In this document: positions 54,470 through 61,082 of the stretch, piece by piece
Layout: each line of letters starts with the position of its first letter
Numbering within the stretch: position 1 is the stretch's first letter
Source of the DNA: Escherichia coli
Lineage (GTDB): Bacteria; Pseudomonadota; Gammaproteobacteria; Enterobacterales; Enterobacteriaceae
Assembly: GCF_050320075.1 (NCBI RefSeq)
Contig: NZ_CP190018.1
DNA: 64,000 bases
Direction: 5' to 3' (one strand)
Translations under genes and position numbers: made by a program
The notes under the pieces: generated by a model
What the model saw: the letters and a program-made list of their open reading frames with translations, nothing else
Told to the model about the DNA's origin: nothing
Databases searched by the model: none

Positions 54470-54600
54470 ATCAAACGACTCGGGGTGCCCTTCTGCGTGA
54501 AGGCTGAGAAATACCCGTATCACCTGATCTGGATAATGCCAGCGTAGGGAAGTCACGGACCACCAGGTCATTGCTTCTTCACGTTATGGCAGGAGCAAAC
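54470..54600 (+). promoter_or_regulatory. TPP (thiamine pyrophosphate) riboswitch, thiM leader
   Basis: Conserved THI-box elements GGGGTGCCC...CTGAGA...ACCTGATCTGGATAATGCCAGCGTAGGGAA immediately upstream of thiM RBS. Confidence 0.8.
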
Positions 54601-54601
54601 T

Positions 54602-55390
54602 ATGCAAGTCGACCTGCTGAGTTCCGCGCAATCTGCGCACGCGTTACATCTTTTTCACCAACATTCCCCTCTTGTGCACTGCATGACCAACGATGTGGTG
54701 CAAACCTTTACTGCCAATACCTTGCTGGCGCTCGGTGCATCCCCAGCGATGGTTATCGAAACCGAAGAGGCCAGTCAGTTTGCGGCTATCGCCAGTGCGT
54801 TGCTGATTAACGTTGGCACGCTGACGCAGCCACGCGCACAGGCGATGCGTGCCGCCATTGAACAGGCAAAACGCTCTCAAACACCCTGGACGCTTGATCC
54901 AGTAGCGGTGGGTGCACTCGATTATCGCCGCCGTTTTTGTCTGGAACTTCTGTCTCATAAGCCAACCGCCATACGTGGTAATGCTTCGGAAATCATGGCA
55001 TTAGCTGGCGTTGCTAATGGTGGACGGGGAGTGGATACCACTGACGCCGCAGCTAATGCGATACCCGCTGCACAAACACTGGCACGGGAAACTGGCGCAA
55101 TCGTCGTGGTCACTGGCGAGATGGATTATGTTACCGATGGACATCGTATCATTGGTATTCACGGTGGCGATCCGTTAATGACCAAAGTGGTAGGAACTGG
55201 CTGTGCATTATCGGCGGTTGTCGCTGCCTGTTGTGCGCTACCAGGCGATACGCTGGAAAATATCGCATCTGCCTGTCACTGGATGAAACAAGCCGGAGAA
55301 CGCGCAGTCGCCAGTAGCGAGGGGCCAGGCAGTTTTGTTCCACATTTCCTTGATGCGCTCTGGCAATTGACGCCGGAGGTGCAGGCATGA
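54602..55390 (+). CDS. thiM: Hydroxyethylthiazole kinase
   Basis: 262-aa [50 protein letters not shown]... Confidence 0.95.
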
Positions 55391-57121: not shown

Positions 57122-57868
57122 ATGGAACAAGCGCATACCCAGCTGATTGCCCAACTGAACGAACGTATTTTAGCGGCGGATAACACGCCGCTTTATATTA
57201 AGTTTGCCGAAACGGTAAAAAATGCCGTGCGCAGCGGGGTGCTGGAGCATGGCAATATTTTGCCCGGTGAGCGTGATTTAAGTCAGTTAACCGGCGTTTC
57301 GCGCATTACGGTGCGCAAGGCGATGCAGGCGCTGGAAGAAGAGGGCGTGGTGACGCGTTCGCGTGGTTACGGTACGCAGATCAACAACATCTTCGAATAC
57401 TCGTTGAAAGAAGCGCGAGGTTTTTCTCAGCAGGTGGTATTGCGCGGGAAAAAGCCCGATACACTATGGGTTAACAAGCGTGTCGTGAAATGTCCCGAAG
57501 AAGTCGCGCAGCAGCTAGCGGTCGAAGCAGGAAGTAATGTCTTTTTGCTTAAGCGTATTCGCTATGTCGATGAAGAAGCGGTATCAATTGAGGAATCGTG
57601 GGTTCCTGCGCATTTAATTCATGATGTTGATGCCATCGGAATTTCTCTTTATGACTACTTCCGCAGCCAGCACATTTACCCACAACGTACGCGTTCCCGC
57701 GTTAGCGCCCGGATGCCGGATGCCGAGTTTCAGTCACATATTCAGTTAGATAGCAAAATACCGGTGCTGGTGATCAAGCAAGTGGCGCTTGACCAACAGC
57801 AACGGCCTATTGAGTACAGCATCAGCCACTGTCGCAGCGATCTATACGTTTTTGTGTGCGAGGAGTAG
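57122..57868 (+). CDS. yegW: GntR/HutC-family transcriptional regulator YegW
   Basis: HTH ILPGERDLSQLTGVSRITVRKAMQAL plus UTRA effector domain. Confidence 0.9.
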   Translation: MEQAHTQLIAQLNERILAADNTPLYIKFAETVKNAVRSGVLEHGNILPGERDLSQLTGVSRITVRKAMQALEEEGVVTRSRGYGTQINNIFEYSLKEARGFSQQVVLRGKKPDTLWVNKRVVKCPEEVAQQLAVEAGSNVFLLKRIRYVDEEAVSIEESWVPAHLIHDVDAIGISLYDYFRSQHIYPQRTRSRVSARMPDAEFQSHIQLDSKIPVLVIKQVALDQQQRPIEYSISHCRSDLYVFVCEE

Positions 57869-58807
57869 TTCCTCGCGCGTTGGCGCACAATCACCGCCCC
57901 GATGCCCGACAACCCACGACGCCACTGCATTGCCCAGTAATACGGCATCCGCCAGTGGCAGACCAGAGGCTAGCCCGGCAAGTACGCCACCTGCATGACT
58001 GTCGCCCGCCCCAATGGTGTCTACTACTTGCGTTGGAAATGCCGGAATGCAGCCAGAAGCGTCGTTGCTGAAATACCATGCGCCCTCTTTATCGAGACGA
58101 ATGATCAACGGCGCGGCAAATTTCTCCTGCCATTGCTTGCCAAGTGTTGTTATCTCTGCGGATAAAGCAAAACGTTCGGCGGCAATCTCAGCCTCCTGAC
58201 GATTGAGTGACACTAAAGGTCGACAGGCCATGATCCGCGCCAGCAATGCATCCGGGATATCGCCAATACGTGGGCCAAAATCGATAAACGGCGTCACGTC
58301 TTGCAGCTTTTCCAGCCATTCCACTAATAATTCGCCGCAGGGCGAGGCCAGTTGATAACCGGAAAAATAGAGCAGGCTGCCAGGCGCAACGGTTAATCGC
58401 GCCAGCCACTGGCGATTCCACTGATTTTCCACACCGCTGAATGACATAAAAGTGCGTTCGCCATCCGGCTCAACCAGCGCCAGACACCAGCCGTTATCAC
58501 CTTCGGCGTTATCGATCAGGCTGATTAAGCCCTCTTTTGCCATCCGGTTGCGAATAATCTCCGCCCACACGCCCTGACCGAGCGGCAAGGCGTTACCCGC
58601 TTCGATGCCGAGGCGCTTTAACGCCACGGCAATATTCAGTGCGCAGCCGCCAACGTTAACGCTCTGCTGTTTCAGTTCGATATCGCACCCACGCCAGGGG
58701 AGGGCATAAGCGTCGGCGATCACATCAATGACCGCCGCGCCAATCACCATAACTGGCTGACGCGTGGTTAATTCAGGCAGCAGCGTGTGTAATCGAGCGC
58801 CGCTCAT
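57842..58807 (-). CDS. yegV: PfkB-family sugar/nucleoside kinase YegV
   Basis: 321-aa MSGARLHTLLPELTTRQPVMVIGAAVIDV...; DTIGAGD motif; 3' end overlaps yegW 3' end by 27 bp. Confidence 0.9.
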   Translation of the reverse strand: MSGARLHTLLPELTTRQPVMVIGAAVIDVIADAYALPWRGCDIELKQQSVNVGGCALNIAVALKRLGIEAGNALPLGQGVWAEIIRNRMAKEGLISLIDNAEGDNGWCLALVEPDGERTFMSFSGVENQWNRQWLARLTVAPGSLLYFSGYQLASPCGELLVEWLEKLQDVTPFIDFGPRIGDIPDALLARIMACRPLVSLNRQEAEIAAERFALSAEITTLGKQWQEKFAAPLIIRLDKEGAWYFSNDASGCIPAFPTQVVDTIGAGDSHAGGVLAGLASGLPLADAVLLGNAVASWVVGHRGGDCAPTREELLLAHKNV

Positions 58808-59808
58808 ACCGCCTCCCGTTGTTGACGATATTTCGCCAGCGCTGTGGCATAGCGGTTGAAATCAAGCTGATTTACCGCATCCAGCTCCGCCTTTAACGCA
58901 GGATCGATAGCGTTAATGCCATGCAACGCGCCGCAGATTGCCGTCGCCATAGCACCGATGGTGTCTGTATCGCCGCCAAGGTTAGCGCAGAGGACGGCGC
59001 AACGGTTCGGATCGGTTTGTGCCAGTTCAACCAGCGCAATGGCGCACGGAACGGACTCAATAGTGCTGGTACCTGCGCCAACGACCTGGTAAAGCTGTTC
59101 GCTGGCGGATTCGGTGCCGTCGGCATTGCGCACAATTTTCAGCGCAATCTCCAGCCGCGCCGCCAGTGAGGCGCTGAAGGTGGTGATGCGTTTTTGCTGT
59201 GCATGTCGCGCAATCGAGGGTAGAGAATCAACAATCGCTGACCAGCTTTCTCCGTCAATGGCACGGGAAATCGCCCATGCGATGACTACCGCACCTGCAA
59301 CCGCCAGATCGGATTTATGGGTCGGGCTGGACGCCAGCGCCACATCATCAATAAAGGAATCAACATCGCGCGCCGGAAGCAAACAACCTAATGGCGAGAC
59401 GCGCATCGCTGCGCCGTTGGTCACGCCATTGTTTTCCAGTTCAGCAACGGGTTTACCGTCGCGAATGGCGTTAAGCGCAATCTTCGAGGTCGGACCTAGT
59501 ACGTTTTTGTTAAAGGCGTCGAAACGCAGCGCCCAGTCGAGAATATTACGCCCAATCAGATCCGGATCGATCTTGCCTTTACGTTCCAGTAACGCATCCG
59601 CCAGACACAGCGCCATCGAGGTATCGTCGGTGAATTCGGCGCGGTTAAAATAACAGGCCGCGTTATTCTCCTTTGGTCCAGGCAGAAAACGGTCAATACA
59701 GCCAAAGTGTGCTTTAACGCGGCTGCGTGGCCAAAGCTCGGAGGGCATCCCCATCGCATCCCCTAACGCCTGCCCATAAAGAGCACCGAGAATACGTTCT
59801 GTTTTCAT
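58804..59808 (-). CDS. yegU: ADP-ribosylglycohydrolase-family protein YegU
   Basis: 334-aa MKTERILGALYGQALGDAMGMPSELW... (ARH N-terminal motif); 4-bp overlaps with neighbours. Confidence 0.9.
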   Translation of the reverse strand: MKTERILGALYGQALGDAMGMPSELWPRSRVKAHFGCIDRFLPGPKENNAACYFNRAEFTDDTSMALCLADALLERKGKIDPDLIGRNILDWALRFDAFNKNVLGPTSKIALNAIRDGKPVAELENNGVTNGAAMRVSPLGCLLPARDVDSFIDDVALASSPTHKSDLAVAGAVVIAWAISRAIDGESWSAIVDSLPSIARHAQQKRITTFSASLAARLEIALKIVRNADGTESASEQLYQVVGAGTSTIESVPCAIALVELAQTDPNRCAVLCANLGGDTDTIGAMATAICGALHGINAIDPALKAELDAVNQLDFNRYATALAKYRQQREAV

Positions 59809-61082
59809 TTAACTTCCCCTTGTGTCAACGCAATATCGCGATCATCGACCTTGATAGCCGTAATTTCGTTGTCGGATTCGCGGAAAAAAATCATGAACAG
59901 CACGGCGATAATGGCAATCATCACCGCGCCAAAAGTCCACATCCCGGCCCAGTTGAAAGTCAGTCCGTTTACCGGTTCCTGATAAGCGAACATCTTTTCC
60001 ATCATCACACCGCCAAGACGATAGCCGAGCAAACTGCCGAAGCCCTGGCAGCAGAGCGTGATCAGCCCCTGCGCGGCGGTACGCATATGCACGGGGGCTT
60101 TTTTATCGACATAGATGTAAGCGGTAACGTAGTAAAAATCGTAACTTACGCCGTGAAGCAAAATGCCGAGGAACAGTAACGCGTAGGTGAAATATTCATC
60201 CGCACTACCGTAAATAAAGAAGCCATAGCGGATCGCAGCGGTGACCAGACCAAGTAATAATACCTTTTTGATACCAAAGCGTTTGGTAAAAAACGGCAAT
60301 GCCAGCATAAAGAAGATTTCAGAGAACTGGCCGAGCGTCATCCAGCCAGTGGCGTTTTTCATGCCAACTTCGGTCAGATAACCGTTGGCAAAGATGTAAT
60401 AGAACGCCAGTGGCATCGCAAACAGAAATGAACAGAAGAAAAAGACGAGGAAGTTTTTATCGCGCAGCAGGATCAGCGCATCCAGGCCGAGCATGACTTT
60501 AATGTCCATTTTGCCGGTGCTTTTTGGCGGCGTGTCGGGCAGGAAAAACGCAAACACACCGAGCAGAGCAGAACTTCCGGCGGTAATCAGCAGCGGGATG
60601 TTAGTCGGAGAGATATCGGCATAACCCAGCATTTGCGGCAAAAATCCACATGCCAGACCGGAGGCAATCCAGCCGATAGTGCCCATCACACGAATGCGTG
60701 GGAAATCACGCTCCACATCCGGCACGTTGGCAAAAGCGATACTGTTAGTCAGCGCAATGGTCGGCATATAGGTTAGCGAGTAGGCCAGCAGTAACGGGAA
60801 GAACCCGGCAAAAGTGGTCTGTTGCGCAGCGAAATACATCAGCGCCGCACCAGCGAACATCAATACCGCCAGCACTTTCTGCGCCGAGAAAAAGCGGTCA
60901 GTGATGGAGCCAACCAGAATTGGCGACAGGATCGCCGCAATGGCGGTACAGGCATACGACCAGCCAATTTCTCCGGCACTAAAACCGCTTTTACTTAACC
61001 ACAACCACAATGGCACAAACCACGCGCCCCAGATAAACCATTCAACAAACATCATGAACGACAGCTTTGCTGTTGTTTTCAT
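59805..61082 (-). CDS. yegT: MFS nucleoside:H+ symporter-family transporter YegT
   Basis: 425-aa 12-TM protein MKTTAKLSFMMFVEWFIWGAWFVPLWLWL... Confidence 0.9.
   Translation of the reverse strand: MKTTAKLSFMMFVEWFIWGAWFVPLWLWLSKSGFSAGEIGWSYACTAIAAILSPILVGSITDRFFSAQKVLAVLMFAGAALMYFAAQQTTFAGFFPLLLAYSLTYMPTIALTNSIAFANVPDVERDFPRIRVMGTIGWIASGLACGFLPQMLGYADISPTNIPLLITAGSSALLGVFAFFLPDTPPKSTGKMDIKVMLGLDALILLRDKNFLVFFFCSFLFAMPLAFYYIFANGYLTEVGMKNATGWMTLGQFSEIFFMLALPFFTKRFGIKKVLLLGLVTAAIRYGFFIYGSADEYFTYALLFLGILLHGVSYDFYYVTAYIYVDKKAPVHMRTAAQGLITLCCQGFGSLLGYRLGGVMMEKMFAYQEPVNGLTFNWAGMWTFGAVMIAIIAVLFMIFFRESDNEITAIKVDDRDIALTQGEVK

Follow-up and report, generated by a model that had tools for sequence, protein, structure and literature searches.

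Convergent excludons of Escherichia coli, such as relBE-ydfV and mscL-arfA, are opposite-strand neighbours that produce transcripts with overlapping 3' ends. The yegV-yegW pair was recently placed among 165 such excludons, each detected in 50% or more of the 58 RNA-seq samples from MG1655 (ExcludonFinder 2025; PMC12288877). Like these systems, yegV/yegW is a pair of opposite-strand neighbours with a listed transcript overlap; it differs from other excludons in two respects. The coding regions themselves overlap, so that transcript overlap is obligatory and does not arise from long 3' UTRs, and one partner is a repressor whose only target operon contains the other.

Coding overlaps of this type have been surveyed by Lillo and Krakauer in 2007 (PMC2174442), who recorded 58 convergent CDS overlaps in E. 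coli. Phase 123:321 accounted for 32% of overlaps longer than 4 bp, compared to 34% expected under a model of stop-codon mutation, and in 21 of the 58 convergent overlaps at least one gene had a predicted rho-independent terminator inside its partner (PMC2174442). The yegW/yegV overlap is one of the 58 tail-to-tail cases, and its phase and an origin by stop-codon mutation fit the general pattern. The earlier survey was statistical, whereas the evidence presented here is specific to one pair and consists of retention of the overlap in three families, RNA pairing that favours one strand and synonymous constraint.

Two other arrangements are close to this locus. In the first, convergent genes are separated by a short spacer with a shared hairpin, as in an outgroup locus described below (L075); the gene layout is the same and one hairpin is placed for both genes. 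Transcriptomic studies of E. coli have revealed terminators that act bidirectionally. The E. coli locus differs from the outgroup state in having no spacer and in having a hairpin that lies within yegW and looks unidirectional. The second arrangement is that of single-target repressors encoded beside their operon, such as those of the LacI type and the NagR/YvoA relatives. The yegW product, GgaR, shares with these a low copy number, an adjacent single target and a small-molecule effector, and it has the GntR helix-turn-helix and UTRA domains in common with its GntR/HutC relatives NagR and YvoA. Unlike such repressor genes, yegW is neither divergent from nor co-directional with its target operon but converges with the end of that operon and overlaps it.

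The yegW/yegV junction of E. coli

The DNA analyzed was a 64,000-nucleotide stretch of E. coli (the window), in which the genes of interest and their overlap were located as follows.

57122 to 57868, + strand: yegW (ggaR) coding sequence, 248 aa, a GntR/HutC-type repressor (ORF list, Pfam, RefSeq).
57842 to 58807, - strand: yegV coding sequence, 321 aa, a PfkB-family sugar/nucleoside kinase (ORF, Pfam, RefSeq).
58804 to 61082, - strand: yegU and yegT, which precede yegV in the yegTUV operon repressed by GgaR (ORFs, Pfam, RefSeq, PMC10819704).
57842 to 57868, both strands: tail-to-tail coding overlap of 27 bp, comprising yegW codons 241 to 248 plus stop and yegV codons 314 to 321 plus stop.

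A sequence-only reading of the window had claimed that yegW and yegV converge and share these 27 bp, and the ORF list, the sequence and RefSeq agreed exactly with that claim. The yegW stop codon is a TAG at 57866-57868, and the yegV stop codon, also TAG, appears as CTA on the + strand at 57842-57844. The overlap is in phase 123:321, in which the antisense codons are aligned, such that yegW Leu241 (CTA) faces the yegV stop and yegV Leu314 (CTA) faces the yegW stop. Identical overlaps were present in the RefSeq annotations of E. coli Ch1, which was 100% identical to the window over 2 kb, and of K-12 MG1655 (2182035-2182061). The junction was found in 5,423 of 5,426 complete E. coli genomes, with an identity of at least 99% in 5,090.

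YegW matched the Pfam families GntR (PF00392; 3e-16) and UTRA (PF07702; 2e-36), had the N-terminal GntR winged helix and C-terminal UTRA domain of the GntR/HutC subfamily and aligned over its full length with NagR/YvoA. YegV, whose gene ends the yegTUV operon, matched PfkB (3.5e-56), while yegU and yegT encode members of the ADP-ribosylglycohydrolase and nucleoside:H+ symporter families, respectively. The two genes thus formed a convergent overlapping protein-coding pair that shares 3' nucleotides and in which both ORFs are genuine up to their stops.

The function of the regulator has been established experimentally. YegW was renamed GgaR in 2024, a name already used in the K-12 MG1655 RefSeq annotation, and was described from ChIP-chip, gel shift, Northern blot and RT-qPCR data as a repressor with yegTUV as its single target and ADP-glucose as its inactivating effector (PMC10819704). 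ChIP-chip detected one target, at fbaB/yegT; a 3.3-kb yegTUV mRNA was visible only in a ggaR mutant and was undetectable in the wild type; and the level of GgaR protein was steady at 20 to 30 molecules per cell across growth phases and media (PMC10819704). These data, together with the GntR and UTRA domains, bore out the earlier assignments of yegW as a GntR-family regulator and of yegTUV as its "probable target operon". The overlap, the repressor-target relation and the excludon listing are therefore already known (from RefSeq, in 2024 and in 2025, respectively), and the additions made here, a conservation analysis and an embedded hairpin, are modest.

Conservation of the overlap and of the codons facing the stops

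The length and type of the yegW/yegV overlap are unremarkable and are expected by chance. In phase 123:321, only the codons CTA, TTA and TCA in either gene place a stop in the partner frame. In the local genes these three accounted for 3.05% of codons, which gives a probability of ∼0.78 for an antisense frame remaining open over at least 8 codons.

The conservation of the overlap, by contrast with its length, is far beyond chance. A scan for YegV in one genome per bacterial species yielded 71 loci, of which 68 contained both genes and were informative. An overlap of exactly 27 bp was detected in 64 of these 68 loci, as well as in the window. These loci spanned the Enterobacteriaceae, the Pectobacteriaceae (Pectobacterium) and the Budviciaceae (Leminorella), with YegV identities as low as 63%, and the genera included Escherichia, Citrobacter, Enterobacter, Lelliottia, Leclercia, Trabulsiella and Mangrovibacter. 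Both stop codons were always TAG or TAA in the orthologues, and their positions were conserved in the 64 loci. The sequence-only reading had named different stop codon usage in orthologues, removing the overlap, as the finding that would count against it; when the orthologues were compared, the 27-bp overlap was kept across three families of Enterobacterales.

Two codons within the overlap were of particular interest.

57842 to 57844: yegV stop (TAG; TAA in relatives) opposite yegW Leu241 (CTA; TTA in relatives).
57866 to 57868: yegW stop (TAG/TAA) opposite yegV Leu314 (CTA/TTA).

Of the leucine codons, only CTA and TTA place a stop in the yegV frame, and Leu241 of yegW was encoded by one of these in 62/62 sequences, compared to 0 to 44% at 18 other conserved leucine columns. 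This exclusive usage indicated that selection keeps the yegV stop in place. Similarly, yegV Leu314 was CTA or TTA in 64/65 sequences. The final eight residues of YegW, LYVFVCEE, were near-invariant, and the YegV tail, LLLAH[K/E][D/N/H]V, varied where the third codon positions of yegW varied, indicating that the overlap evolves mainly as yegW coding sequence. Both C termini are ordinary elements of their folds. The RSDLYVFV segment of YegW, in the last UTRA beta-strand, aligned with the terminal strand of NagR/YvoA (RGDRYTFV), and YegV, which ends in the last PfkB helix, aligned with ribokinases up to residues 313 to 316, these homologues running 7 to 10 residues longer.

Departures from the 27-bp overlap were observed in a few loci. 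In Citrobacter amalonaticus S646 (L008), a duplication of ∼90 bp had provided the two genes with separate copies of the junction, leaving a 56-bp gap, and Leu241 was now encoded by CTG. One duplicate copy carried an 11-bp deletion, and the former yegV stop was CAG in both copies (L008:3928-4109), such that loss of the stop may have preceded the duplication. In Citrobacter sedlakii (L020), the YegV tail was replaced by REQLLVSLKR and the genes were separated by a 69-bp spacer with two strong hairpins, of approximately -33 kcal/mol on either strand (L020:3955-4045). This YegV variant was found on 14 contigs and appears to be species-wide. The existence of these two un-overlapped lineages indicated that the overlap can be lost without the loss of either gene. 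A 1-bp deletion within the overlap of Yokenella regensburgei ATCC 49455 (L030, 3940-3981) shifted yegW into a long antisense extension, which represents either a pseudogene or a sequencing error, and yegV was frameshifted in a Pectobacterium locus (L066).

More distant relatives were obtained from a search of representative proteins, as a word-index search gave close relatives only. In one outgroup contig (L075; YegV 48% and regulator 37% identical), a yegT-yegU-yegV operon faced a GntR/UTRA gene across a 35-bp spacer containing a GC-rich hairpin. In another (L074; 60% and 64% identical), the genes overlapped by 14 bp in a different phase. Among the nine outgroup loci examined, no convergent regulator was found besides those of L075 and L074, the convergent gene of L079 being unrelated. 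The layouts of L075 and L074 indicated that the convergent arrangement is older than the overlap; an ancestral spacer is suggested by a single outgroup contig, L075.

Two side observations were made during these comparisons. The YegV variants of 295 aa from a set of E. coli strains (P0005-P0013) had an in-frame internal deletion of 26 aa, CLALVEPDGERTFMSFSGVENQWNRQ, located between two tryptophans (∼58408-58485 of the window, - strand), which probably inactivates the kinase and leaves the C terminus and the overlap intact. A locus titled Chryseobacterium sp. 18061 (L043) held a yegV/yegW region of the Enterobacteriaceae type that had two differences over a 123-bp junction alignment from that of Citrobacter sp. 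18056 of the same project (L048); this assembly is probably mislabelled or contaminated.

A hairpin within yegW on the yegV-sense strand

The region past the yegV stop, which lies within the yegW coding sequence, was examined for structures in the yegV-sense RNA.

57760 to 57806, - strand: 19-bp hairpin with two 1x1 internal loops and a 5-nt loop, 35 to 82 nt after the yegV stop and within yegW codons 213 to 229.
57749 to 57759, - strand: U-rich tail AUUUUGCUAUC directly after the hairpin, with a predicted yegTUV 3' end at ∼57752-57757 (K-12 ∼2182146-2182151).

Hairpin and tail together occupied the stretch 35 to 90 nt past the yegV stop (yegW codons 210 to 229). Folding of the - strand of E. 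coli gave -27.9 kcal/mol with a z score of -4.8, a stability reached by 0 of 200 shuffled sequences, whereas the same hairpin on the + strand gave -21.4 kcal/mol and a z score of -2.2. Across 63 distinct sequences, 95.9% of cells were paired on the - strand with a covariation score of 0.134, compared to 79.7% and 0.027 on the + strand; the covariation consists of double changes at only 3 pairs, being limited by the coding region, and the shuffle control ignores phylogeny. Many of the changes in the - strand stem were from G-C or A-U to G-U, and there was one compensatory change of G-C to U-A. A G-U wobble is tolerated solely on the yegV-sense strand and becomes A-C on the yegW-sense strand. 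The hairpin was also recovered by RNAalifold. The stem was complete, with all 19 pairs, in 34 loci; another 19 loci formed 18 pairs and 7 formed 17. This strand-specific pairing argued against a DNA site and against a structure in the yegW mRNA.

A corresponding constraint was detected in the codons of yegW. Synonymous variation fell over codons 201 to 248 of yegW, and no such fall was observed in the 3' part of yegV. Third positions that are paired in the stem had a mean entropy of 0.62 bits, compared to 1.05 bits at other conserved degenerate codons (p = 0.003). Arg228 was encoded by the non-preferred codon CGG in 93% of sequences, compared to 0 to 45% at other arginine columns, and P214 (CCG) and L216 (CTG) were each constant in 62/62 sequences. 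The embedded stem of C. sedlakii, a species with separate hairpins in its spacer, formed 15 of 19 pairs, and P214 was CCC there; this relaxation concerns a single lineage, and equally low pair counts were present in four overlapping loci.

As in intrinsic terminators, the stem-loop was stable, contained GC pairs and lay downstream of a stop codon. The U-tail was variable. Among 64 overlapping loci, 59 had five to seven U residues within the first 10 nt past the stem, and the other 5 had three or four; the U-tract was mediocre both in E. coli (AUUUUGCUAU) and in Citrobacter (CACUUUGCUG) and was absent in Trabulsiella. The site did not resemble a bidirectional terminator, as the + strand was weaker, was less completely paired and was followed by CCUAUUGAGUAC, which has no U-tract. 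A simple promoter/terminator scan detected nothing at the junction, the long interrupted hairpin being seen only by folding and alifold, and the 3'-end maps in the supplements of PMC12207403 and PMC7815308 had no entries for yegT, yegV or yegW. The 3.3-kb yegTUV mRNA seen in Northern blots was roughly consistent with an end near the yegV stop (PMC10819704). Overall, these features suggested that the embedded hairpin is probably an intrinsic terminator or a 3' stabilizer of yegTUV. Given its position close behind the yegV stop, the hairpin should halt most convergent polymerases after ∼115 nt of yegW.

The yegW transcript, which leaves its gene in the opposite direction, enters a region of different composition.

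57869 to 57968, + strand: C-rich, G-poor RNA antisense to the yegV 3' end, without a conserved hairpin; possible Rho-dependent zone for the yegW transcript.

The first 80 nt after the yegW stop contained 33 C and 17 G residues, ranking 5th among 157 windows on the + strand of the operon, and the mean excess of C over G in this region was +2 to +7 per 40 nt across species. An alifold search for conserved structure past the yegW stop yielded a consensus of merely -4 kcal/mol, and none was found. From this composition, we would guess at Rho-dependent termination of yegW in the C-rich zone.

Two other structures were considered as functional elements and rejected. A palindrome, GCGAGGA-GTAGT-TCCTCGC (57858 to 57876), is centred on the yegW stop, with z scores of -2.6 and -3.7, and results from Glu-Glu codons of YegW and YegV that face each other; its outer part was variable in relatives (at the YegV E312 codon) and it had no U-tract. 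A terminator-like hairpin followed by TTATATT near the 5' end of yegW (57172-57192, + strand, codons 17 to 24) formed all its pairs in just 18 of the 65 orthologues and was considered lineage-specific and probably fortuitous.

Compaction of the junction and transcriptional interference

The reading that best accounted for these results, to which we assign a probability of roughly 60%, was that the DNA between a repressor gene and its convergent target operon was compacted long ago and that the result is held by double purifying selection; it does not look built for regulation. An ancestor within the Enterobacterales would have lost a short spacer between yegV and yegW, such that the two C termini came to share 27 bp. 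From then on the arrangement has been locked: each stop lies opposite a conserved leucine codon of the partner, insertions or deletions would damage both proteins, and the YegW tail is near-invariant. Once the intergenic DNA had gone, the yegTUV 3'-end signal would sit inside yegW, where a hairpin and U-rich tail are conserved specifically in the yegV sense, constrain the synonymous sites of yegW and presumably act as a terminator or stabilizer. The yegW transcript, having no conserved hairpin, would run into C-rich sequence antisense to yegV and would probably be ended by Rho. Whenever both mRNAs are made, they would be complementary over at least ∼115 nt, and this obligatory complementarity explains the presence of the pair in the excludon list. 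The dual-coding constraint likewise explains the conservation without a regulatory benefit.

A rather unlikely alternative was that the overlap is a selected excludon or feedback device, kept since convergent transcription matters. On induction, ADP-glucose would inactivate GgaR, and the yegTUV polymerases and the antisense 3' end would then lower ggaR expression through polymerase collision and RNase III cleavage of the RNA duplex, giving positive feedback; in the reverse direction, read-through from yegW would dampen leaky yegTUV expression. The excludon listing (PMC12288877), the identity of the partners as a regulator and its sole target, the retention of overlap and convergent layout across three families and the necessary complementarity of the mRNAs all speak for this alternative, and with just 20 to 30 molecules of GgaR per cell small changes could matter. 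However, listing as an excludon is near-automatic for overlapping coding regions. The constant level of GgaR across the growth phases and media tested argues weakly against reciprocal expression, and the conserved terminator-like hairpin should halt most yegTUV polymerases early in yegW. Furthermore, the overlap was lost in two lineages without gene loss, and the outgroup works with a spacer. Dual-coding lock-in and selection for regulatory cross-talk would look alike in conservation alone, for which the dual-coding constraint was a sufficient explanation.

The strongest form of this alternative, in which the overlap and the embedded terminator have been a selected feedback element through the whole history of the Enterobacterales and induction by ADP-glucose cuts the synthesis of the ∼20 GgaR molecules per cell, was considered doubtful; if it were true, derepression of yegTUV would be switch-like or hysteretic. 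Interference between yegW and yegTUV, as proposed in the sequence-only reading, may occur, and the transcript overlap that it would require is in the literature through the excludon list (PMC12288877). Any such interference would act mainly upon derepression of yegTUV and would probably be modest. The constant level of GgaR, the probable terminator near the yegV stop and the functional un-overlapped variants argued against interference as the reason for the conservation.

A different alternative concerned the hairpin alone and was considered improbable. The low synonymous variation over codons 201 to 240 could be due to codon bias, to structure required in the yegW mRNA or to a DNA palindrome for protein binding, with yegTUV transcription ended deeper in yegW by Rho or collision. 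CCG, CTG, GTG and GCG are indeed common enterobacterial codons, the U-tract was weak or absent in some genera, and neither the simple terminator scan nor the 3'-end maps of PMC12207403 and PMC7815308 reported the site. Against this, pairing, covariation and energy were all better on the yegV-sense strand, and the preference for CGG at Arg228 runs counter to common codon usage. The single GgaR target at fbaB/yegT and the size of the 3.3-kb mRNA, compatible with a 3' end near the yegV stop (PMC10819704), also spoke against this alternative. Finally, the notion that the overlap is a product of chance or annotation, with one ORF ending earlier or not being a gene, was rejected as having a negligible probability: although chance alone readily gives so long an overlap in phase 123:321, stop codons, unlike starts, are unambiguous, both stop positions were conserved in 64 loci, and Pfam matches and alignments to solved homologues reached both C termini.

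Under the compaction reading, the locus carries little weight as a discovery and represents a tidy, ordinary case of genome compaction. It may serve as a teaching example of spacer loss, in which stops become locked to leucine codons of the partner and a terminator is moved into the coding sequence of the partner with a synonymous footprint. The natural un-overlapped variants, C. sedlakii and C. amalonaticus S646, are ready-made controls, and a low-copy repressor with a sole target is a convenient system for asking whether a catalogued excludon regulates at all.

Several minor features were observed in the surrounding genes. Start/stop overlaps of 4 bp and of the ATGA type, the usual sign of translational coupling inside operons, were present at yegU/yegV (58804-58807), yegT/yegU (59805-59808) and thiM/thiD (55387-55390). 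An Rfam scan of the locus gave no match besides the known, RefSeq-annotated TPP riboswitch upstream of thiM (54471-54567, + strand; RF00059, 71.8 bits). For yegX (56243 versus 56252) and fbaB (61266 versus 61339), the longest ORF began upstream of the RefSeq start, which represents start-site ambiguity only.
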